DNA of 63,985 bases, filler included, from Collodictyon triciliatum (Eukaryota), in NCBI GenBank assembly GCA_043381765.1. It is 4 parts of 4 records of this genome, joined end to end, with 100 filler letters (N's around TTAATTAATTAA, not from the genome) between each part and the next. Parts side by side here need not be neighbours in the genome. Positions count along the whole stretch, not along the records: positions 1 to 20,031 come from JBHJMP010000538.1; 3 more parts are not named here. The stretch is one strand, 5' to 3'. The position numbers and the translations under genes are program-made. A model generated the notes under the pieces. The model was not told the origin of the DNA. It did not search any database and was given only the letters and a program-made list of their open reading frames with translations. How positions within the stretch are numbered: position 1 is the stretch's first letter; every line of letters starts with the position of its first letter. Shown here one piece after another: positions 485-49,915 of the stretch.

Positions 485-3400
485 TCAAACTGGGGTATTG
501 TCGGTCTGGTATGTCATCAGTGGATGCGATAGAATGGACTGAAGCAAAGATATCCAAGAAAGCTGCTCGCTCTTTGTCTCTACCTATATTTCAAAAGTTT
601 GTGTATACTTCAATTAGCGAAAGATGTTTCGGCCATATGCTTTCCATGACAGTATTACATAACGAGAAACAATTCCCTGCAAAGTTGGTGCGAAATGGAA
701 TAGGACAAATATGAATACTTTGATAAAGTATAGCTTTCCGTGGATGTGTAAACTAAATCCAAACATATTATCTCCCGTCTCCCACATCATCACCTTTTCA
801 TATGAACATATATGTCGTTAGAATGCATTTATCTTCATTCGAATAAAGAAATAAACAAACATTTCAGTTTTCCTATGTTCATAAATGATGAGAAATAAAA
901 AAAAAATTGTGTGTGCCTTTGTGCATAGACACCTGTATAATATATCAAAAGAAAAAAAAAAGGGGGATTGGTAAATATTAGTAAAATACGAGAAAGTTTA
1001 TGACCTTGAAATTGGTGTCTAGATTAATGCATCCTGTTTCTTCCTGCATAGTCATGTCCTTATACCTGACAAGCTGTTTTGTGTCTCTGTTCAGGACAAA
1101 GTATCGCTTTTCCCAACCTTTGTAAAAGTTTTTTGTTCGGTAGTGCACTTTCCCTTGAAGCCTTGGGATGGATAATGACAGGCCTTTGTCTGATATCGCC
1201 AGTTTTCTGCATTTCGAACACATGAATCGCTTATTCGTAGAAAACAACGTGTACTCTTCCAAGTATTCCTTCCATGAAGACGGTAAATCTAGGGTATTTA
1301 TGAATAGCACAAATTCAGGAACCAAAGATGCCTGGTAATTCACAGGACTTTGCTTCAATTGGTGGTAAACTCTGGCCTCCTTTTCAGATGCAGCGACATC
1401 GGACGGAGCAAATCGTCTCGTAAATTCATCCAATATATTATTCATATATTTTGCGATAATCCCACTCCCTTCCAGCATCACAGATGATATACGGTATCCA
1501 GGATGCGCAGTGCGATGACAGCCATGCGGGCTTTCGCAAAGCAGATGCACAGTTATGGTATTTTGCGATGAAGATGACAAAGATTGAGGCGAGGGGATGG
1601 GTAATTGGGAGAAAGAACGAGATGACTGATAAAGCCTTAACTGTGACGGAGAACTTGGAGGAGAGCTTGGGGGAGAGCTTGAAGGGGACGTTGGAGAGGA
1701 CCCTGGAGATTGATGCACATGAGGGTTGTACGATGAGTATCCACTGACCATCTCGACTTGCAGCATCGACGGAACTGCTTTTAGGATTACAGGACGCATC
1801 ACCGTCCTTGAACGAAGCAAGGCAGGATATCCTCGACCTTGCCAAATGGCTATATCGTGTGATTTTTGCTCAACAGAACAATGGAATTCGGTCGCTTCCG
1901 TTTTGACCAACTCTTGATACGACACTGAGCCACATTTTGATATAACACCATGGCCAACAAAACATTTCGGACACATGATTTTGCGACTTGTAATGATTAC
2001 GCCTTCAAATATTTGTATAGAAGACTGAATTCGAGGTAGAAGATGGCCCAAACATTTCAATGAGTTGTCTCCAAATTTTGTTCTGACGTAAATAGTCATT
2101 TTGTTATCATCTATTCGTGCGTGCAAGTAGGCACGACACGGCATAACTTGCTCGTCCTCTTTGAACAGAAAGTCCCCGACATAGTGATTGCCACTGTAAA
2201 ATGTGGCCGACTCTGAATACAAATCACGCGGAGTCTCCTTGTAAAGCACACATATTAATTGAGCAAAGAGAGCTTTTGGAAAAAGGTTAAAAGTTAGCTC
2301 ACATGTGATTTGTGATGATACATCGTCCCCTGGGAGAAGAGACCAGACTTCTGGGGTAGGAACACCAGGGGCAAGGAGGGAAGGGAAAACTTGAAAACGT
2401 TTGTCGTGGGTTTGAAAAGAAAACCGGTATAATTGAAACAAATCAAACACATCATTCACGTATCCTGGGACATACATTTCAAGATGTTGTACGATATCAT
2501 TATTGGAACAAACGCCAAAGCCTCTGGATTTTTGAATAAACTGGATCAACACGTAGCATATGTGCATTAAGAAGCGAGGGCAACATGTCACTGTGCCCGA
2601 CAACCCAGCTTTCTGACTCCAAATAATGGATCCATTTTCTCGAAGGAAGAGGAGGACAGAGTCCACTTTAGTGGTTTTAGAGATACTTTGTACGAGATCT
2701 TGGAACTCTGTATAAGAGTAAATAGGAAACGTTGCGGAACGAGCACGATTTGCGGCAAGTTCTCTGGCTTCCAAATAGACAACAGGGATAACTTGCTGAG
2801 TACTGGGAAGGTGAGCAATAGCAGTTCCAATCAAATCTCGTAGGTGTGCAATCTTTCTGCCAGTCTCATTGCTTACAAAGACATCTGCAATAAGAACAAA
2901 CTTGTCTCGAAACGGGGATACAATCTCACGTAGATCAGCCACTTCCTGGAGTCGCACAGTTTCATTCCGAAGACGTGGGTGATCACAGTTTGTCCCAACC
3001 ACAATCACCTGTGTACCAGAAACAACAGATGCTACCATGGTGGCCCAAGATGCGAGGCAGGACTTTTTGACACCTTTCCCCATGTCATACACCAAAAGCA
3101 CCACATTGCCGGGTGATAAAAACTGGGTGTAGATTGATTGCAGCTCTAATTGGCCACTAAAGTCCCATGCATCCGTCTCTACCTCGTCACCACCCATCGT
3201 TATTCTCAGAGGAAACGTGTAGGTCTTAAAACCAAACGTGGGCCGGCGCTTCATCTTACATGTGCTCTTGAAAGCCTCTTTTGTGTTAATGAGGGATTTA
3301 ATCAGTGTTGTTTTGCCGCAAGCAATATCTCCAAACACGAGGACACGAGCACGAGGCCAGGAAACAGTTTCGTTTTGTGTTATTCGAAGGTATGTCATGA

Positions 3401-3931
3401 TTGATTCCAGTCCTTTTTGGCATATTTGAGTAGGGGGGAACGATATAGGGTTTCCTGATATGTTGCATTGCGAAAGGTTACTTAGACTTCCAAAAGACAA
3501 TGGAAGCTTGGTTACCTGTGCAGAGGAAAATATATAAATAAAGGGGATGACGAGAATGTTTGTAATGATGGATACGATAAAATGACATTTCCATGGACAA
3601 ATAATCCATATCAATGTAGTTGTAACTTTTGAATATGAGTTAATAAAGAAAACTGATAAAATGAGACAAAAGAATAATAGATGAAAAAATGACTGAATGT
3701 GTACATAGATAAAAAAAAAACAGTTAAATGGATGATAGATAAATCAAAATTACAAGATTCGAAGAAATATCAAGCAAACGGAGATTTGACAACAGTCCTA
3801 TGCTCTCTGGTAGTTTAGAAATCTTTTATAAACATAGGTAACCATTAGCGTAATCACGTAAACCTGAATGGGACATAAATGGATGATAGTAACGAAAGCA
3901 GTACTGAACAAAAGGAAACAAGGCAAAGGAA

Positions 3932-4020
<89 letters not shown>

Positions 4021-7000
4021 ACAAGAAAAGGGGAAAGCCAAATAAACATAAAAACAGAAAAACAGAAAAACAGAAAAACAGAAAAACAGAAAAACAGAAA
4101 AACAGAAAAAGAAAAAAAGAAAAAAAGAAAAAGAAGGATGAACCTGATTCCGAGACAGATCTAGGGACGTTATTTGAGTCATTTTTAGGACGGGGTTTGG
4201 GATGATTTCCCATTCCATACTATGAAAAGTTAGGGATAATGTTGAGGGGTCAAAGTTTTCCCAAAAATCTATGATTGGCTGAGGTATGGGATTATTGGAC
4301 AAATTGATATCCAGTTTACGAAAGATTCCACTGCATTCTGGTGATTCAGTAATCTAGAATTTCCGTGATGATGAATAATGAGCGATTAAGACAAACGATT
4401 TTCATGATGGGATTAAGAAATGAGTCAGGAGGTTTAACTGTCAAAGACTCATGCCGTTTGCAGATTAAGAAAAAAAATTAAACTAGATATAGGAAGGGTA
4501 TATGAATATTGGGCAAAACCTGATTATATGACACGTCTATGTAAGATAAGTTTGTAAGAGAGCTAATCCAATGCGGTATTTTATGGATCTAAAATAATTT
4601 TCGACACAAGTATACAATATGTCATTTTTCAGATTTTTTGAAGCGTATTTTTTTTGTATAGCTTGTAATTAACGTTACCTGATTATGTGAAAGTCGGAGG
4701 TCACACAAGCTGTACATTTCAGAGACGAATTCGGGGATTTCACTTATCTGTGTTACAATGAGACTATGTGTTAGACAAAGAGATATACATATAAACAATT
4801 GTTGATATACCATATTGTTGGCCATATCAATCATCCACAGAGCTGGTAACTTAGAAACAGCAAAAGGTAGTTCTGTCATGCGGCTATCATTCAATTGAAG
4901 GCTTCGTTCCAAAAGATTGAAGGATGACCAAACTGCTCCTTCAAGCGGATCAAGACTCAGATCATTCAAGTTCAAGCACTTGAGTTGAGTCATGGTATTC
5001 ATCCGAGGAATATTTGATATCTTACGCATCAATTTAAATATAAAATTCAATCCATCAGTAGGATGTACAAATTAAAAAAAAAAGTGAAATCTTGGGAAAT
5101 AAATTCATGATCGTAACATATAATCATAATCATACTTTTAGTCGGGATAAGTAAGCAATCGTAATTGTAATAATATAGCTACGATGAAAGCAAATAAGAT
5201 CATACGGGATTATTTGAGCAATCAAGAATGCAAAGGTTTGTCATGTTTGTCATAAAATCCGGTATTTCAATCAGCTGTTATAAATTATTTTGAGTCACGA
5301 TTCAAATTATATATAAAGTTGTGTTGTATGATGATAACATTCGTTTTACCATATTTGATGAAATATTCAACGACGATAAGGGAAATTTCGTAATAAATGA
5401 CGGCAAACTCGAAATCTGTTGCATAATTTCTTTCAAAATTGATAGGTTTGCACAAATAATTCATTTAAAATAACATATGGTGGTTAATGTTTTTATAGCG
5501 AAAAAATATCGTGATATCACCAATTTTAGGCAGGGTCAACTATCACAATTTTGAAAATAATTGACCAACTAGTTAATTCACCCTATTTCCTGAGAAATTT
5601 ATATCTTTAAGCTCACGGACGACGTAAAGCTCCGGATATATATGTTCGATTCCTCGAGATACGATCGATATCGAATCTTTTGTGGTGTTCACAGTTGAAC
5701 AAACAATTTTTATAAATTCGGACAAGGGATTGCCCTCCACTAATAATACACTCATTTTTGTCAAAGGAGATATTTCTGGTATAGAGCTTATCTATTAATT
5801 TATACGTATCATTAATTAACTTATTGGAGTCTAATGCATTGATTTTCATACGTATGGCAAAAAAAAAAATTCTTTGAAATTACCAAATTGTAGGATATAT
5901 CGAGGCTTTGCAGATTTGTCAGCATATTAATTTCCTCTGGAATCTCTTCAATCTGTAATATTTTTTTTTATTAAAGAGTGATATAATGGTTATTATCAAT
6001 ATGATGGACAAAAAAAGAGCTTCAAAATTGTTGGGCACCGCTTGATTTGATAAATGATAAATTAAAATATCTGCTTCCTCAAATAAATGTACCTTATTGT
6101 TCGATATATTGAACACTGCAAGTTCTCGAATGTGGTTAATCGCCGTAGGAATGAAAAAAATCTATAAAAACACGTCGATCAATTTTTAGAAAACTCAGCA
6201 TAAATTTTCCCTTTTTAGCAGTATATAATATATAACCGATAATCATCTAACGTTCGAAATGAAAGTAGCAGAAACAATTTTAATACCTCATTATGGGACA
6301 AATCAAGAGTCTTGATTGTTGAGAGCAAGAAAAAATCCAATGGCAGAGAATTGATCTGATGGTAATAGCGATGCAATATTTAGTTTTATTACTTAAATAT
6401 ATCTGCTGTTATATTTTTGGCAATATATTCAATCACATATTTCCATATTTATTTACCAAATTGTGAGAGAGTGATATGTATGTCAATCCTTGAAGTTCAG
6501 GTATCAGTTTTTCCAACGACCGAACCATTTTCCTGTCCCATAACCCAATCTTTGGATCGATTAGATGAAGACGACGAAGTTCCATATTATTTTGGTAACA
6601 TGGAAGACCAGTAATGCTTTTGATAATACTATGAATCTAATATCAAATTAAAGTTGGCTTAAGGATTTTCGATTGGTATTTGCAAGCACAGGATTTTCAC
6701 TTTCATGCTGATTTTAAACATTTGAATACACTATATTCATTTCTTTTATTTAAAATAATATTTTCATGACACAGCCATCTAATAAGGCGTATAAGGACAA
6801 CTTGTATTATCATTTTGTTTTCTGCAGGAGAATAGTGATACATTTATAGCCAAAAAAAAAACTGCACCAAGCTTTTCAGATCACTTACAGGATTTCCAGT
6901 TATTCGTAGCTTTCTTAGGTTCTTCATAGAAGTTATAGATTCAGGCAACTCGAAAATCTGAAAGAATAGCGTTACAAATTTATATAGAAATATTTAAAAT

Positions 7001-13216: not shown

Positions 13217-13518
13217 ACAGAGCCACACACCCCGCCCTGGACTACCGGAAACATTCCATAAAAGGAAAATGACGACATTTCCCATTCTCCACTTTAGTCT
13301 AACAAAAAAAACTCAACCCAGGTAGTTATAGACTCTCCATTCTTCGGTTAGGCTGTTTGATCACACAATCCGCCACGTGGTATTTTTTCCTCATCCACTT
13401 CTGCAGCCGAACACACCGCGCCCAAGCCACTAATCAAAGAGAGATAGAGACAGAAAAAGAGAGGGAAACAAAGCTAACTTATGACCTGATAAACCGTGCC
13501 CTAAAGCGAAGCGAAGAG

Positions 13519-15226
13519 ATGCGTCCCTCTGTTCTATTTGTTGCCCTTGTATCCGCGGCCTTCCTTGTTGCGCCGCTCGTCGCTGCTGCCTCGTCCTCAA
13601 GCTACTCATACAGCACATCCTCGTCCTCGGGTTCGGGTTCCTCTTCCTCCTCGTCTTCCTCGTCCCGCTCGTCCTATTCGTACTCTGCCTCGTCGTCCTC
13701 AGACTCTGGAGCAAAGGCCGCACCAGACCAAGCAGACTCGGAGTCTGATCAGCCTCGACACCTGCCTCTACCCGAAGAGCCATTTCATAATCCGTCGAGT
13801 GTCGCTCACCCTCATGCGCAACACGCCCACCATGAAGAACAACATCACAAGCACTTTCAGCACAATCAAGCCCAGTTCCAGGGACAGTTCCAAGGGCAAA
13901 ACGGCCAGGCTCAATATCAGGCCCAATTCCAAGGCCAGAATGCACCGCGTCGTGATGTTCCCACCGACGGGACCAAGAAACTGGATGGAAACAGAGCACA
14001 ATTCAAGCGCACCTATGCTTCCCAAAATCATCAATCTTCCTCGTCCTCGTCTTCATCTTCCTCGTTCGACTTGAAGCCAAATACACCAGGTGAGACAGTA
14101 ACCCTGATTTCACCATCGCATATATTCTGGAGCCCGTCGGGAACTAGAATCCCTGACTATGGAAGAAATCATTCAATTCTATACCTGCATACCACATTTC
14201 AATATGTTTAAAATCGAAACATATTAGGTGAAAGTGGGGCTGTTGAGGTATAGCTATCCTATCCCATACACGAAATCTATATTACATAATTCGCAGTAAG
14301 GGAGATACAAACGAGGGCTTACAAGCCAAGTCGAAAGCCTCTCGACTTACCCAAATTGATAGGAAGAATAGGAAAATATTCACGCAACTTGATATAGGTG
14401 AATGGAGCTTTCTGCAATTTTAAATATGCAGCCTTCGGTGGGACTGTCGGTTTGTATTATAATATGAAAGATACAATCAGTATAGAGACGGAAAAGTGTC
14501 TCCAATAACGATGAACTTACATCAACATACACGAGAAGAGATCCCACCGTGATACACGTATAAAGTATTCTTCCTCTTCTTAGAAAAATGGCAGATCGAT
14601 GCTGTACAAACGAATGGATTTTACAAGTGCATAATTTCTCGGTAATCTACGTTCCAATTCATACACATTAGTTTCAAAGATAAAGGCTAGTTATCGAGGC
14701 AAACCAAATATATGTACTCACTTCCGTGTATATCAGGCCTCAGGGTCGTACGTATTTAGTTTTTAGCTCCTTTACGGCATCTTTCAAAGGAGTTGGAAAA
14801 TTGACACGTGTGGAGATATGGGTAGCGCTAATATCGCAACCTTTTAGCCCAATAATCATATTACATCCACAATGCTGCGAAACGAATGATGGATTGTAGT
14901 GATATGAATAACTATATTATAGGATGAACAAGGAATTGCGCTGGAGGGAGACACATACATCGTGCGTGGGGAAGAAGGTATGAAGGGGAAGGGGGAAAAA
15001 AGAAAAAGAAAAAGAGCGTAGTATCGCAACAGAATGGTTGCATAACCCCATTTATATATAATCGCGAGACACACATGCCGAAGTCCCTTCTCCCTTTTGT
15101 CTTCTCAAGTTTATCACAATGACCGCAAGCACGATTTAATATTTCTTCCGTTTACTCACAGTCAGCTCTACTACAAAATGGGACGGTCCAGTCTACAAGA
15201 TCGTCCTGGAGAGCAACGTTGATTAG
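13519..15226 (+). CDS. Secreted/ER-lumenal MYDGF (UPF0556/C19orf10)-family protein with long Ser-, His- and Gln-rich N-terminal extension
   Basis: Signal peptide MRPSVLFVALVSAAFLVAPLVAA. Spliced C-terminal domain SFDLKP...FCNFKYAAFGGTVEKWQIDAVQTNGFYKCIISRPQGRTYLVFSSFTASFKG...VYKIVLESNVD* matches the MYDGF pattern (CxFxYAxxGGTxExWQ...CxIxRPQGxxYLxF) with both Cys present. Confidence 0.82.
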
Positions 15227-15419: not shown

Positions 15420-18400
15420 TCAAAAAATCGACCGGCGCGAGCTCTGGGTGAGGCTTTCGTTGGGCGCGGCTATATGAGTCGGGAGGCAGATCTGCTTGCC
15501 TGCAACAAGTTCGTCGAGACCCTCGCCAGCGTACGAGACCAGCGGCGATACTTCACACATCCCAGCGGCCTCTTAATGAGGGTAATGGTTGTCAGATATG
15601 ACTGACGAACCACACATCACACATCACACATCACACATCACACATCACACATCACACCACATCAAATCAGGTCAAGATATCAGAGGGCAAACCATCCTCA
15701 ATCACAGCGCCTGCGCTGCGTAAGTAGGACATGTGCAGACGACACAAGGCTGCTCGTGCGGTGTCGGGGGAGTCCTTATTTTCGCCCCACGTTCGCTTCA
15801 CCGGCGCAAATTCCTCTTCTCGCTGGACCTGTGCGGTGTTTGAAATACTGTGATGGAATGGTGATACGACGGAGTGGCGGGTAAGTTGGGCGCACCATCA
15901 AGAGAGCAACTTTCTTCGCTAGTGCCGTGCAGTCAAGCGCAAACTTTACGAACCGATAGCCGTTGGGCTTCTGAGGAACGACTCGTTCGCCTTTCTCATT
16001 GCAGTACGGAATGATGCGCTTGGCGTAGTGATATCTGCCGTGATGCAGGATGTGTGTCGAGTGATGCGAAACGGGAGATGGGTGATGGGGCATGGGAAAT
16101 ATACGCAAGAGATTACTTTGGTTTGAAGTTTCGGACGACTTGGCTGAGAAAATGCTTTGTGTAGAACAAATTCAATATGTTTGCGGCATTGAAAGAAAGC
16201 TCTCCGTTTTCATCATGTTCAGCACAGGACTGTGTCATTGTAGCAGTAAGTTAGAATCATGGCCTTGGAGCTTGGGACATAGAGGGGGTGATGCATATAA
16301 TAATAGTAATAGTAATAATAATAATAATAAACAGAGAAGGAAAAAATATGTGACGATGTCTAGGCTACAACAGAGACGGTTCGCCATCGGTATTTTGTGC
16401 GACTGCACGAGTGCTATGCTTACTTTTGGGAGTTCGGTGTGTTCGACGTAGTCTATCTTGCCAGACCTTTTGCAGACGACACCGGCCGGCTCCATAGGGT
16501 CTGCCTGTTATTTGATGGAGTGGGCACGAAAAGTCAATCAACTCTAGTCAACCCCAGATTGAGAGAGGACCACAAAAGCCGCCGAAAGAAAAGACCAGAG
16601 AGTAATGAATTGTCAGCCATAGGCATCTATATACCTTATTTACCACTTTGTATCCAAAGTCTGCACGTGTGTCGATGCAGTATCCGATATAGAGAGGGTC
16701 TGCGACACGAACGAGAGCGTTGTCCACGGCATATACGAATATGTATTCGATGCCCTTCTGCTCCATCTTTTCGAGTACCTGAGCATCTTGCATAGCGGTG
16801 TAAAGACCACCGTGTCCGTCAGGAGCGCTGGCGACCTTCGTTAGCAATAAGGGCGTACTTGTTAAGTAATGCGCCATCTCCATTATTTTTTTTTTTTATG
16901 TTCTTGCCACTGACGTAGATAGAGTAGATGATTTACAAAGTGGTATTCTGTATAGAATAAAGGAAAAGAAAAAAGGAGAGCAGAGAAGAGCAGAGAAAAG
17001 AAGAGAAGAGAGAAGAGAGAAGAGAGAAGAGAGAAGAGAGAAGAGAGAAGAGAGAAGAGAGAAGAGAGAAGAGAGAAGAGAGAAGAGAGAAGAGAGAAGA
17101 ANNNNNNNNNNNNNNNNNNNNNNNNNNNNNNNNNNNNNNNNNNNNNNNNNNNNNNNNNNNNNNNNNNNNNNNNNNNNNNNNNNNNNNNNNNNNNNNNNNN
17201 NAGAAGAGAGAAGAGAGAAGAGAGAAGAGAGAAGAGAGAAGAGAGAGAAAGAGAAAGAGAAAGAGAAAGAGAAAGAGAAAGAGAAAGAGAAAGAGAAAGA
17301 GAAAGAGAAAGAGAAAGAGAAAGAGAAAGAGAAAGAGAAGAAACAAGTTTTTAAGGATGAAGGATTTAGATGCAAAGTACCTTGCAAGGCGTTTCCAGAA
17401 TGATTTTACCTTCAAAGTTCACACAAGGGAGATTTCTTTGTGCAAAGACTTCGAAACTGCGAGGAGGCAAGCCAAAGAATTCATTATTTTCGAGAAGATC
17501 CGTTACTGATAAAACCATGTCATGGCTGGTCATGATAAAGACCGGGATGCTAACTTCCTGAGCTGATAATGACAAACACAATCATATTCAGATCTTGAAA
17601 AAGGATGAACAAGTGAACACAATTTTAGTCTTGTATTGTCACGAGATGTGCTGTTAAGGGTTATGATTTTCTTCCCGAAGAATTATATAGATGCAAAATA
17701 ATAAAATAATAATAATAGTGTGGAATGAAAACGGGGTGATATGATATTGACCGGATTTTAGTTTGGTAGAGCTAGCTAATACCTGCAGGATTTGCCTTTC
17801 GACATAGTTCTGTTAATTTTGATATCCTTTCAAATTGTAGTTGGAAAAGTGTCTTATGTGATGGTAGTCCGATATCTGAATAAAATTTTTTTAAGTTGAT
17901 TTAGTTGAACATTGCAGAGCCATGACAAATTAAATAAATAAATAAATAGGTAAATAAATAAGTAAATAAACGGAATGGTTCGAGGGTATCACTACCGAGC
18001 ATTCCAATTGACATAGCTGCGCCCATTCTCCAGTACTAAGTGTGCAGTGACACACATACATCAAATATGTTATTGATGTAATTTCATTACTATTTCTTCA
18101 AATATATATATACAAAAATGCATTTTTTTGGGGGGTTGGGTTAATGGAGCAAATTACTAGGGGTATTATTAATTTATTATATCAAAGATAAACTGAATGA
18201 AAAGTAAGAAGGAGAGAAGGAAAGAGTCTCACTTGTCCTCCTGCAAATGCGACTACACCAACTTTCCCCGAGGTAAGGGCATCTAGACCTATCTTTGTCC
18301 ATCTTTCCCTTTGTTCTGCAGATAGTCCTTTGATGTGAGGAATGTCTTTAATTGGTTCCAAATCTTGAGGCTGGATCTCTCTCCCTTGTCCTAAAAGTGA

Positions 18401-19606
18401 GTTCGTTAGATCTTTATTTGTTTACTCCAGTAACTCTAGACATAAACAGGTGAATTATGCTTTAAAAACAACAACAACCAGCATTTATCCCTCTTTATTC
18501 GAATCAACACACTGGTATAAAAAATAAACAAACAAAAAACAAACAAAAAACAAACAAAAAACAAACAAAAAACAAACAAAAAACAAACAAAAANNNNNNN
18601 NNNNNNNNNNNNNNNNNNNNNNNNNNNNNNNNNNNNNNNNNNNNNNNNNNNNNNNNNNNNNNNNNNNNNNNNNNNNNNNNNNNNNNNNNNNNNAGAAAGA
18701 AAAAAGAAAGAAAAAAGAAAGAAAAAAGAAAGAAAAAAGAAAGAAAAAAGAAAGAAAAAAGAAAGAAAAAAGAAAGAAAAAAGAAAGAAAAAAAGAAAGA
18801 AAAAAAGAAAGAAAAAAGAAAGAAAGCAAGGAGGGGGCAGCAAGAGACAGAGGCACCTCGAGATCCTTCTCCAGACTCTCCTTCTCCTTTGTGGAGAGGC
18901 GGTCGAGGAAGCGAAAGACATGCTGCTGGTTGTGGATGGCAAACTTGGGATACTGCGCGCCAAGGACCTGCCTGCCAAGGGCGCCGCCCGGATGGAACTT
19001 GCCAAACTGCATGCGCGTGAAGCACTTGCGGACGGAGAGGGCGATGGCGAGGGCGTCGCCGAGGGCGAGGGTGGCGGTGGACGTGTTTGTGGGGGCGAGG
19101 TTGTGGGGGTCGGCCTCGTGCATGGCGCCGATGAGGAGGGCGACGTCGCTGGCGCGGGCGAGGGGCGAGTCGGGCAGCGCCGTGATGCAGCAGATGCGCG
19201 CGCCGATCAGCCGCAGCGGCCCGATGACGGCCAGCAGCTCGTCCGTGCGCCCGCTGTAGCTGATCGCAAGCACCACGTCGCGGCCCGTCAGCATGCCCAG
19301 GTCCCCGTGCGCAGCCTCCGTGGCGTGCGTGAAGAACGCCGGCGTCCCCGTCGAGGCCAGCGTCGCGGCAATCTTGCGTCCGACGTGCCCGCTCTTGCCG
19401 ATCCCCATCACAACCACGTGGCCCTGCCCGGCCCCCGCAGACGCAAGCAGCTCCACCGCCGCCTCGAAGCGCTCGTCCAGCCCCTCGCTCAGCCGCTCCA
19501 GCGTCGCTGCCTCCGACCGCAGCACCGCACGCCCAACCTCCACCGCGCTCAGCCCGCTGTACGGGCCCGGCTTCTCCCGGTCCTTCTCCTTCTCGTCCAG
19601 GCTCAT
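15420..19606 (-). CDS. Fusion protein: KpsF/GutQ/KdsD-type SIS sugar-phosphate isomerase (no CBS pair) + UDP-N-acetylhexosamine pyrophosphorylase (UAP1)-like domain
   Basis: Exon 1 (19606-18857) has [50 protein letters not shown] and runs straight into [19 protein letters not shown] (UAP N-terminus). Later exons: [75 protein letters not shown]; stop TGA at 15422-15420. Confidence 0.88.
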
Positions 19607-47000: not shown

Positions 47001-48824
47001 TAAAAAAAAAATCGTCTCTAAATGGTGTGCACCTTTTTGTGTGTGCCCTCGACAACATAGCGGCTATGTTCAACCTATCACATGCAAAACTCAGTCGTTA
47101 TATTAACCAACTAGGCTGTAGAACGCCTGAGAGAATCCAAAAATATGGAAATCGGAATGCAGTGCTGTTTTGAGCTGTCTGGTATGATGAGCGCTTCTCT
47201 TATGAAACATGAGATACTCTTGCGTGAAAAAAGAACTATTCAAAACGCATCCCTCATAATTGTATACAGAGTGGGTAACAAGTGCGCTCCAGCTCCCGAG
47301 CCAACCAGACAAACTGGAATCCCTTGTCGGTGATGTGTTGAAGAGGGCCTTTGAAAACCAGTCTACTGCCATATTCACCTATTGCCTGACCCCGATGCTG
47401 TCAGAGAGCTGTCGCCGCGCGCAAGCGACTCGGCTGTAAGCAAACTCTTAAATCTAACTGCATAATCATCTCTTATCAAATGAAGTCACGGGTTGTTTGC
47501 GACGGCGGTAATGGCAATGACGTTGATTTATTCCCCAGAAAACTAATGCCGTCTCGTTGTTCTTGGGTTTCTGTTTTTCTGTTTTTCCTTTTTTTTTTTC
47601 TTTTTTGATATTGTTATTTTTGTATATATGCGTGTACGTCTTGTCGCTCCTTTGTTTAGCCGTGCCCAAATCAGCGAACGGATCGCTGGAACAGACTACG
47701 AAACTGACCAGGACACCTTGTCGCTGATGGATTTGCTGCTGGAGTATGCAACCAGAGACGAAACCTTGTTTGATGCGAGTAAGTATCCACTTTGTATCTG
47801 CCTATCGTTTGGCTTCCTCTTTGCTGCATTCGGGACCTTTTCTTCCTTTTTTTCTTTCCATCTATTGCTCCGATATTTGGTGCTTCTGTCAGCATGGCAT
47901 GGCATAAGAGCAGTCGTGTCCTCCCCCCTCGCGCTTGGCTGGCTGGCCAGCTGGGTGAGTGATGCCTCTTGCATCAAGGGAATACATGGCAGCGGCTGCT
48001 TGAGACCTTGTCTGTCACGCAGGCCTTGTTCTCCACACACCAGACAGGCCTACTGCACGATTTGATAGCCACGGCTGGCAAAGACTTTCTCCTTACTCCA
48101 CTATTCTCACCAATTCAGAAGAAAAAGAGAAAGAGTGAGAGAAAAAGAGGGGAAAAGAGGGGAGGGGGAACCCATTTGTCTTAGAAATCACCTCACAAAA
48201 ACATGCATAATTCGCAGCAAGCACAGGACCGACAACAAACACTCCACGGTCGTCACGGAAGGCCGGGACAAGGGGAACGGTCGGGGCGCACGGAGGGTCG
48301 AAGGCGGTGCGTCGCATGACCTTTGGGGCGTCCGAGGACTTCTCGAGCGGAGACGACAACGCGACGATGACCACGGCACACACAGGCCACTCGCGCACGA
48401 GAGCCTCTCGCAAGCGGCCGAAGCGGGCCACACGGGACGAGCGCGGCGGTGGAGACGCAGATGAAGATGGAGTTGGGAATGAGGATGGAGTTGGCGATGC
48501 AGAGGCAGAGGCAGAGGCAGAGGCAGAGGGCAGCGAGGGAGACGGCGGGGACGACGAGCTGTCTTCGTCAAGCGACTACCGACCGAGTGGGCGCAGAGGT
48601 GCAGCTGGGTCGGAAACGCGGCGGTCATCGAGGTGTGTTGTCTGTCGAGTCATCTCCTGTCATGTCAACTCATGTCATCTCCTGTCACGGATGAGTTGTC
48701 CTCACACGCAAGCGCCACAACAACACCGCAGGATCGAGAAGAGGCAGCGGACAGCGACGGAGGCATAGGGCTGGCTGCGGAAGCACAGGCGCACGGCACA
48801 CCCGGCGTACCCGTGTCTGTATAA
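41094..48824 (+). CDS. STAG: Cohesin subunit STAG/SA/Scc3 (multi-exon)
   Basis: VVDGWVNRY...[40 protein letters not shown]...[44 protein letters not shown]; acidic low-complexity C-terminus. The final exon frame is uncertain (stop 48768 or 48824). Confidence 0.9.
46824..46933. repeat. (CATGCTTT)n intronic tandem repeat
   Basis: Direct reading; inside a STAG intron. Confidence 0.9.
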
Positions 48825-48999
48825 ACCGGAGGCACAGCCCCGAACCCGGCGCACGGGCGGTTTCCTGCGTTGTTTATTGCGGGAGGCCTTTGCTCCCCCG
48901 TGGCAACCGGGCCCGTGCAGCACCGCGCGGCACAAGGTCCCCGGCGTGGCCACCGGAGAGGGAGGGGTTGGGTGGGACGGACAAGGGCAGCCGCACAGG

Positions 49000-49915
49000 C
49001 TACATGGCTGCAAGGACGACGACGACGGTGACGGCCACGACGAGGGCCACGCACGCGGCAATCCACATCAGCTTCCTGGAGCAGCTGTCGTGGTACTCGG
49101 AGGCCTTGTGCAGCTGCTGGGCGCCCTCCTTGGTGCGGGTCTCTGCCGCGGCGATGTTCTCGTCGATCAGGTCTATGGCGGGCTGCGCGGTCAGTGCGGG
49201 GGGTGGGAAGAGCGGGAGGGTGGGAAGAGCGAAATGTCCCACCAAGCGTCTCCTGCTGCTGCTGCACAAGGATGGCCAGGTCCCGCAGCATCTCGTTGAC
49301 CTCGCCCACGGTGCGCTCTGCACAAAGCCCCGTCAGTACGCCGCAGTGCAAGCAAAGCTATTGGGCACGGTGAGGCAGCCACTAACCCAGTCCCCGGATG
49401 GCCTCCTCGCGCTCGCGGATGCTGGCCTCGTTCGCAGCCATCTCGCTCTCGAACAGGACCAGCTTCTTCCTGCAGGGGGTGTGTGTTGCGTGTTGAGAGT
49501 ATGAGAGTATGAGAGTATGGGAGTGTGAGAGTATGGAATCTTGCTTTTCAGCCGCTTTCTGGATGAGAGCCTCCCGCTCGCCTGCTGTGGTGCCGTCGCT
49601 GTCGCCGTGGCCGTAGCCCGACAGGAACGGAGGCGACCTACTTGGTTGGAGCCCAGTGAGATGCCCTGTGCGAGGGTGTGTGCAGCCTTGGTTGTGGACA
49701 TACCCTGAGAGTTGGGGCTGTGTGCTGTCCGGCTTGTGCCTGCGCTCCTTCTCTGCAGACTCGCGCACAATCTCCTGGAAGGTTCTGGCTACCGCCTGCA
49801 TATCCTTGCTCAGCTTCTGCTGCTCGGCTCTTCGTTTCTGTGTCCAAAGAGGCTAATCGTAAGTAACCTCTTCTTCATTATCGCATTTGTTGCTGGTTGT
49901 TCTTGTTCTCTTCCG

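Follow-up and report, generated by a model that had tools for sequence, protein, structure and literature searches.

Why should a bacterial-type sugar-phosphate isomerase be joined, in a eukaryote, to a nucleotidyltransferase fold of UAP1 type, and what would the joint protein do? The question is raised by a gene on the minus strand (19606–15420) of a 63,985-nucleotide stretch of Collodictyon triciliatum DNA (assembly GCA_043381765.1), referred to here as the window. An earlier note on this DNA had proposed that exon 1 of the gene encodes a SIS domain of the KpsF/GutQ type, that this domain passes into the N-terminal helices of UAP within one gap-free exon and frame, that the UAP module occupies the position of the CBS pair and that the architecture is undescribed; all four points are borne out by the results below. 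We find one real eukaryotic gene, encoding a two-part protein of roughly 700 residues, and tentatively, with a confidence a little short of even, read its product as an active arabinose-5-phosphate isomerase (API) in which the CBS pair has been replaced by a non-catalytic or weakly catalytic, ligand-binding module derived from UAP1 with a regulatory and/or oligomerisation role.

The SIS-to-UAP join lies inside exon 1, gap-free, in a single frame and touching no N. After a 10-residue stretch at the end of the SIS part, the exon runs on for 37 more codons, and its 26-residue tail corresponds to residues 13–38 of human AGX1 (1jv1), as aligned through the near-identical stretch of a second fused protein, P0002. 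The latter, a 579-residue protein of another species from a Trinity transcriptome in EukProt, is the best match of exon 1 among longer proteins (76% identity over 96% of exon 1) and is 78% identical to the UAP part of the window gene over 326 columns. P0002 carries both PF01380 and PF01704 (the latter with E 6.6e-35), crosses the same junction in a 32-residue stretch and then aligns to AGX1 from residue 13 (1jv1, E 2.9e-72 over AGX1 13–347). As a genome and a transcriptome from species that are 76–78% identical here share the junction, an assembly chimera or other artefact is very unlikely. The match to P0002 ends right after the position of the exon 8/9 border and P0002 itself stops 18 residues later, as would be expected if an intron had been retained or the transcript cut short; the C-terminal third of the protein is thus not documented by P0002.

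The window is eukaryotic DNA: its introns are spliceosomal, low-complexity sequence forms long tracts, and N runs occur at 16 places. A tblastn search with P0002, combined with inspection of splice sites, resolves the minus-strand gene into 11 exons, and the borders of the visible introns are canonical throughout (10/10 donors GT, 10/10 acceptors AG). Its features are as follows.

19606–19604, minus strand: start codon ATG, opening a stop-free frame to 18857, then GT
18857–19606, minus strand: exon 1, KpsF/GutQ-type SIS, short linker and first UAP1-type helices; 250 codons in one open frame, GC 0.69
19040–19426, minus strand: SIS domain proper, residues 61–189 of exon 1 (Pfam; alignment to 2xhz and 5uqi)
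18857–18967, minus strand: fusion junction, SIS end …GGALGRQ, then linker and UAP1 N-terminal helices, residues about 214–250
18594–18693, no strand: assembly gap 1, 100 N, within intron 1
18233–18390, minus strand: exon 2 of the visible model, ending …FAGGQ, the first half of the signature loop
17996–18035, minus strand: exon 3, 40 nucleotides, 13 residues that form the rewritten nucleotidyltransferase signature
17783–17875, minus strand: exon 4, with a 12-residue motif
17381–17562, minus strand: exon 5, …IMTS… and the conserved uridine-pocket Gln
17102–17201, no strand: assembly gap 2, 100 N, within the intron between exons 5 and 6; frame and P0002 alignment continuous across it
16635–16835, minus strand: exon 6, APDGHGG…YAVDN…; matches PF01704 on its own, E 4.2e-17
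16424–16504, minus strand: exon 7, …EPAGVVC…YVEHTE…
16117–16229, minus strand: exon 8, with a 10-residue motif; P0002 diverges directly after it
15896–16034, minus strand: exon 9, aligning to AGX1 351–393
15693–15828, minus strand: exon 10, aligning to AGX1 398–438; the Lys equivalent to AGX1 K407 and AfUAP1 K437 is kept
15420–15571, minus strand: exon 11, with an 11-residue C-terminal motif; TGA stop at 15422–15420

The earlier note had followed the remaining UAP exons down to 15420. The ten exons and the TGA at 15422–15420 are indeed there; what it overlooked is that the frame breaks between exons 1 and 2, where an N gap also lies. Exon 1 closes in phase 0 but exon 2 opens in phase 1, and the 16 residues of P0002 that fall between them have no tblastn match anywhere in the window. 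Given the phase break, the absent residues and the 100-N gap in intron 1, an unseen exon of about 49 nucleotides probably lies in the gap at 18594–18693 and would restore the frame from exon 1 to exon 2. The gene as assembled is incomplete and would not translate through, which may be why the window protein is absent from three database searches. Microsatellite-like tracts (GTGTGAT repeats, CT/CTT-rich and T-rich) occur at 15600–15665 and in the introns at 16950–17340 and 18540–18850, adjoining the gaps, and such repeats are probably the cause of the gaps that interrupt the gene.

The isomerase half is well preserved. In P0001, the 250-residue translation of exon 1, PF01380 (SIS) matches residues 61–189 with E 2.2e-28, and TIGR00393 (kpsF) scores 203.2 bits with exon 1 (cut-off 203.7), covering only profile positions 1–154 of 268, and 207.4 bits with P0002. 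The SIS half is 49–60% identical to bacterial KpsF/GutQ proteins, and its alignment to E. coli KdsD (2xhz, E 1.1e-45) shows no large gaps. The equivalents of KdsD K59, H88, E111 and E152 are kept; that of H193, the His of an FHPGG motif, lies just downstream of the SIS domain and is aligned in 5uqi. These five residues, which we take to be the catalytic set, hardly vary: across 52 sequences (the two fused proteins and 50 bacterial ones), the Lys, the two His and the first Glu are invariant and E152 is nearly so. In the 50 bacterial KpsF/GutQ sequences, 84 columns reach 90% conservation or more; the window protein deviates at 12 of these, and three of the 12 lie in the linker to the missing CBS pair; a Cys-to-Asp change in the EACP motif recurs in the solved homologue 5uqi. 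By sequence, exon 1 carries a SIS domain of the KpsF/GutQ subfamily, and this SIS half most likely still interconverts ribulose-5-phosphate (Ru5P) and arabinose-5-phosphate (A5P). The best non-fused match of the SIS part, P0003 (445 residues, ENA metagenome), has a stretch of its SIS domain repeated almost unchanged ahead of the CBS pair, which is probably an assembly or gene-call artefact.

No PF00571 match for a CBS pair is found in exon 1 or in P0002, and positions 155–268 of TIGR00393 are left unmatched; a UDPGP-type domain stands at the place of the pair. An isomerase domain of this kind can stand alone, as in the CBS-less single-domain relatives with solved structures (5uqi, 198 residues; 3etn, 220; 3fxa, 201).

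The UDPGP-type module behind the SIS domain belongs to the UDPGP fold and is collinear with UAP1, starting at AGX1 residue 13 and reaching as far as the C-terminal motif. Its signature loop departs from the canonical form: GGQGTRLG…PKG has become GGQYWRMG…SIG, letter for letter the same in the window and in P0002. In AGX1 numbering, the loop changes are G113Y, T114W, L116M, P121S and K122I, at columns that are 95–100% conserved in 100 canonical UAPs. We surveyed the loop in the best 150 representatives of a HMMER search (4099 matches, E ≤ 0.001) together with P0122. The region could be aligned in 148 UAP-like proteins, giving 152 instances: the aromatic pair occurs in none of them and the Lys is kept in 150, the other two being poorly aligned rows. 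In all, 88 columns reach 90% conservation or more among the 100 canonical UAPs, and the window protein deviates at 19 of them; changes beyond the loop include N223H, Y304H, K356R, K377R, E379V and N408R, of which N223H (AfUAP1 N249H) is shared with P0392, a UAP-like protein with a near-canonical loop.

Set against the contacts reported for UAP1 of Aspergillus fumigatus (AfUAP1), the changes seem unevenly placed. Its uridine triphosphate (UTP) is contacted by G136, Q138, G139, T140, R141, K148, Q222, G248, C277 and K383, and its N-acetylglucosamine-1-phosphate (GlcNAc-1-P) by N249, G316, E329, Y330, N355 and K437 (PMC8386105). The equivalents of G136, Q138, R141, Q222, G248, G316, E329, N355 and K437 are kept in the window protein, and the altered ones correspond to G139Y, T140W, K148I, C277A, K383R, N249H and Y330H; in AGX1 numbering, the residues retained are G110/G111, Q112, R115, the uridine-pocket Gln, G222, D253/N254, G290, E303, N327 and K407. 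As the equivalents of G139, T140, K148 and Y330 are lost and those of R141 and K437 kept, the damage appears to centre on the loop by which the β and γ phosphates, those of the leaving pyrophosphate, are held, with the uridine and sugar pockets largely preserved. In AfUAP1, kcat/Km for UTP falls from 0.10 to 0.002 with the K148M mutation, the Km for GlcNAc-1-P rises sixfold with Y330F, and K437M is inactive (PMC8386105), and mutagenesis described elsewhere marks the T140, R141 and K148 equivalents as essential for binding or catalysis (PMC3888555). We infer that the UAP module is no longer an efficient nucleotidyltransferase and would be non-catalytic or weakly catalytic.

This outcome bears on the two functions that the earlier note had offered, a channel from isomerase to nucleotidyltransferase and a sugar-nucleotide-sensing domain. 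A normal nucleotidyltransferase, as it had taken the UAP module to be, is hard to reconcile with a loop that reads GGQYWRMG…SIG; because this signature is disabled, the sensing domain appears the better of its two options and the channel is weighed against. In the mechanism that we propose, the SIS domain would still make A5P, and the UAP-derived module would be unable to handle a nucleoside triphosphate (NTP) in the canonical way; it would keep its pocket for a uridine nucleotide or sugar and act, in the position of the CBS pair, in ligand binding or assembly, its ligand most plausibly being a UDP-sugar. If so, this would be a clear natural case in which UAP1, a housekeeping enzyme of sugar-nucleotide synthesis, lost its catalytic function after duplication and was built into a different enzyme at the site of the bacterial CBS pair; pseudoenzyme-based regulation would gain a further example, and the UDPGP fold a new use. 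A eukaryote outside plants would possess a bacterial-type A5P isomerase, which raises the question of how A5P is used, whether for 3-deoxy-D-manno-octulosonate (Kdo), for D-arabinose or for erythroascorbate-type products. The protein is small enough for direct isomerase and pyrophosphorylase assays, by which regulatory and channel readings could be quickly decided.

Each constituent has well-studied counterparts. The SIS part is collinear with E. coli KdsD and keeps the Lys, His, Glu, Glu and His of the KdsD/KpsF/GutQ family (TIGR00393), from which the window gene differs in its lack of a CBS pair, its spliceosomal introns and the UAP1-type domain of about 450 residues behind the SIS. It shares its SIS fold and its lack of CBS domains with single-domain API-type proteins such as 5uqi, 3etn and 3fxa; these, however, end after the SIS, whereas the window protein continues into a second fold derived from an enzyme. 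That second fold is collinear with the eukaryotic UAP1/AGX1 proteins (PF01704) and about 38–46% identical to eukaryotic UAPs, and is set apart from them by its rewritten signature and its site behind a SIS domain. Bacterial API SIS domains fused to KdsA-, KdsC- and KdsB-type domains likewise combine SIS with a second enzyme fold, once a nucleotidyltransferase (PF02348, P0092), but most of them keep the CBS pair, and the partner in the window is a UDPGP fold of eukaryotic descent rather than a Kdo-pathway enzyme. For function, there is an analogy with GFAT (glutamine:fructose-6-phosphate amidotransferase), a SIS isomerase reported to be controlled by UDP-GlcNAc bound on its isomerase domain (PMC7000685) and to be able to isomerise Ru5P to A5P (PMC11301363). 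GFAT belongs to another SIS subfamily with another architecture, and its UDP-GlcNAc site lies within the SIS rather than on a recruited pyrophosphorylase fold; by analogy, it would nonetheless offer a precedent for a SIS isomerase under the control of a UDP-sugar.

The history of the UAP part can be traced in outline. In a maximum-likelihood tree of 40 sequences (quick search, support from the SH-like approximate likelihood ratio test (SH-aLRT) only), the two fused proteins pair with support 100, on a stem of 1.26 changes per column with tips of 0.21 and 0.11, and the pair is sister to P0392 (SH-aLRT 99). In the same tree, the UAP part falls into a loose grouping with the UAPs of animals and fungi (SH-aLRT 93, not starred). 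P0392 is a 574-residue EukProt transcript protein with the near-canonical loop GGQATRLG…PKG, and it also contains the lineage-specific motif PDGHGG and a second, 10-residue one; it may represent the canonical paralogue within this lineage, or else a chimeric transcript. P0392 was further observed to bear an N-terminal extension with DUF4517 (PF15006, E 1.7e-7) and a truncated C terminus. The long stem, the short tips and the sister placement of P0392 would fit a duplication of the lineage's own UAP1, followed by fusion, fast change and finally purifying selection. Between the two species the UAP part (78%) is about as conserved as the SIS part (76%), and the rewritten loop itself appears to be under constraint, with all 13 residues of the exon 3 loop identical between the window and P0002, whose species are 78% identical overall.

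For the SIS part, identities reach ceilings of 55–60% with bacterial matches and at most 56% with viral API genes. Base composition is uneven along the gene: within exon 1, GC at third codon positions (GC3) is 0.93 in the SIS part and 0.78 in the UAP tail, and across the remaining exons it is 0.50. The window has just one other large GC island, at 48201–49800 in a region otherwise of roughly 38% GC; this island reaches a GC of 0.69 and holds syntaxin-type exons (minus-strand open reading frames (ORFs) at 49003–49332 and 49385–49852; PF05739 SNARE, E 4e-9; PF14523 Syntaxin_2, E 3e-7). Very GC-rich exons are thus a feature of native genes here and, as the other island holds a native syntaxin/SNARE gene, we rejected the high GC of exon 1 as proof of a recent transfer from bacteria.

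Several observations weigh against a regulatory, catalytically disabled module. The rewritten loop shows not one difference between the two species. Both R115 and K407 (AfUAP1 K437), the second catalytic Lys, are still present, leaving room for residual or altered catalysis, and AfUAP1 K148M is reported to retain about 18% of kcat (PMC8386105). Among the 120 longer-protein matches of exon 1 that were listed, SIS isomerases are fused to enzymes of their own pathway, namely PF00793 (KdsA type) in 11, PF00702/PF08282 (KdsC type) in seven and PF02348 (the CMP-Kdo synthetase nucleotidyltransferase) in one, a base rate that favours a catalytic partner. At locus L024 (2977–5114) of a 64.7-kb viral contig, a KpsF-like SIS gene of 203 residues, with no CBS pair and 41% identical to P0002, overlaps by four bases the start of a gene for a 509-residue NTP_transf_3 plus APH-type kinase protein, an arrangement resembling an operon that ties an API-type isomerase to sugar activation. 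Finally, the window gene lacks one exon in the assembly.

Most of these points speak for a bifunctional enzyme, in which the SIS domain makes A5P or isomerises another sugar phosphate and a rewired UAP domain, as a nucleotidyltransferase with changed substrates, forms a channel to an unusual sugar nucleotide such as activated D-arabinose or a Kdo-pathway product. We consider this unlikely, yet it deserves serious weight. Beyond the pathway fusions, with their one nucleotidyltransferase, and the overlapping viral genes, it can call on the retained equivalents of R115 and K407, which are central to catalysis (the latter, as K437, being required in AfUAP1; PMC8386105), and on the identity of the loop in two species, as expected for a new function and not for decay; a route proposed for eukaryotes moreover passes through D-arabinose-5-phosphate on its way to D-arabinose and GDP-D-Arap (PMC11301363). 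Against it, the loop residues by which the phosphates of the NTP are held, Gly, Thr and Lys, have become Tyr, Trp and Ile, a combination tolerated in 0 of the 152 loop instances from 148 relatives, and the loop Lys is reported to be essential or to contribute strongly (PMC8386105, PMC3888555). A5P, besides, is not a sugar-1-phosphate, and to get from one domain to the other would take at least a mutase, or a kinase together with a phosphatase. A more specific version, in which the Tyr-Trp/Ser-Ile loop is a new active site and the protein couples a nucleotidyltransferase of new specificity to an isomerase on a eukaryotic route from A5P to activated D-arabinose or a Kdo-type sugar, seems to us a shade less probable again. 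We know of no enzyme for a sugar-nucleotide route from A5P in this part of the eukaryotic tree.

The UAP domain could also bind nothing in particular and serve as a scaffold for the folding, solubility or oligomerisation of a horizontally acquired isomerase, or in an unrelated moonlighting role such as protein–protein interaction. The CBS pair is dispensable for the fold, as the solved single-domain proteins 5uqi, 3etn and 3fxa illustrate, and the alteration of 19 of the 88 highly conserved UAP columns would be in keeping with such a role. Most residues of the uridine and sugar pockets appear to be kept, however, and the domain is as conserved as the SIS part (78% and 76%), beyond what a mere spacer would need; we regard this explanation, too, as doubtful. 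That mis-assembly or scaffolding joined two distinct genes, or a SIS fragment from a contaminant to the host's UAP gene, or that the gene is a dead pseudogene, is very improbable: the odd composition of exon 1 (GC3 of 0.93 as against 0.50 in the other exons) and the gap and frame break between exons 1 and 2 point that way, but the junction lies inside exon 1 and not across the gap, the junction and the missing exon both recur in the independent P0002 transcript from a species 76–78% identical, all visible exons are open with GT–AG borders, and GC-rich exons are native here, as in the syntaxin/SNARE gene at 48201–49800.

How widespread is the architecture? PF01380 and PF01704 occur together only in P0002 among the 120 longer-protein matches of exon 1 listed, among the 120 listed matches of similar length (8,000 of 8,000 candidates passed, and this list was saturated by KpsF) and among the 120 listed of 1,229 matches of the UAP region. 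Conversely, Pfam scans of 30 UAP-like proteins (P0390–P0392 and, from the 150 representatives, the 27 that are long or whose match starts late) found no SIS domain; with a best identity of 47%, the representative library seems to be without the cluster of P0002 and may miss proteins known only from transcriptomes. A search of JGI metagenome contigs with the junction peptide revealed no further fusion among the matches listed (at least 594 pattern matches, 11 confirmed loci): 10 of the 11 loci match only the first 14–18 residues, which are a bacterial KpsF end, and the remaining one, L003, matches residues 1–40 of the peptide at 35%. Viral contigs gave seven pattern matches to P0002, none confirmed, and 57 loci matching a KpsF alignment at up to 56% identity, none of which extends into the UAP part. 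The ESM Atlas returned only plain UDPGP clusters (best score 0.77), and a full-text literature search found no paper on an API–UAP fusion or on a SIS domain with UDPGP. The architecture is therefore very rare and almost absent from the sequence databases searched; the combination is new, and both of its constituent families are well known.

UAP-like proteins have been extended in other ways as well. P0240 and P0241, plus P0390 and P0391 (from the oomycetes Pythium oligandrum and Peronosclerospora sorghi), are very long, with two or three tandem UDPGP domains; P0240 and P0241 also match PH and ADH_N, and the copies in all four proteins keep the canonical loop. Part of the exon 1 words occurs in a few sequencing runs (one guessed to be RNA, 0.65; two metatranscriptomes, 0.21 and 0.17; three freshwater or lake DNA metagenomes, 0.14–0.25), which constitutes no evidence of expression or habitat.

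Elsewhere in the window, a 302-codon ORF on the plus strand (13303–14211), just downstream of the fused gene, has weak, sub-threshold, low-complexity Pfam matches (New_glue, 23 bits with a cut-off of 31). On the minus strand, between 978 and 5071, a 921-codon ORF (978–3743) has Roc/Ras GTPase and weak COR-B matches and an upstream ORF (4622–5071) contains leucine-rich repeats (LRR); together, by their domain matches, the two look like a ROCO-type (LRR-Roc-COR) gene.

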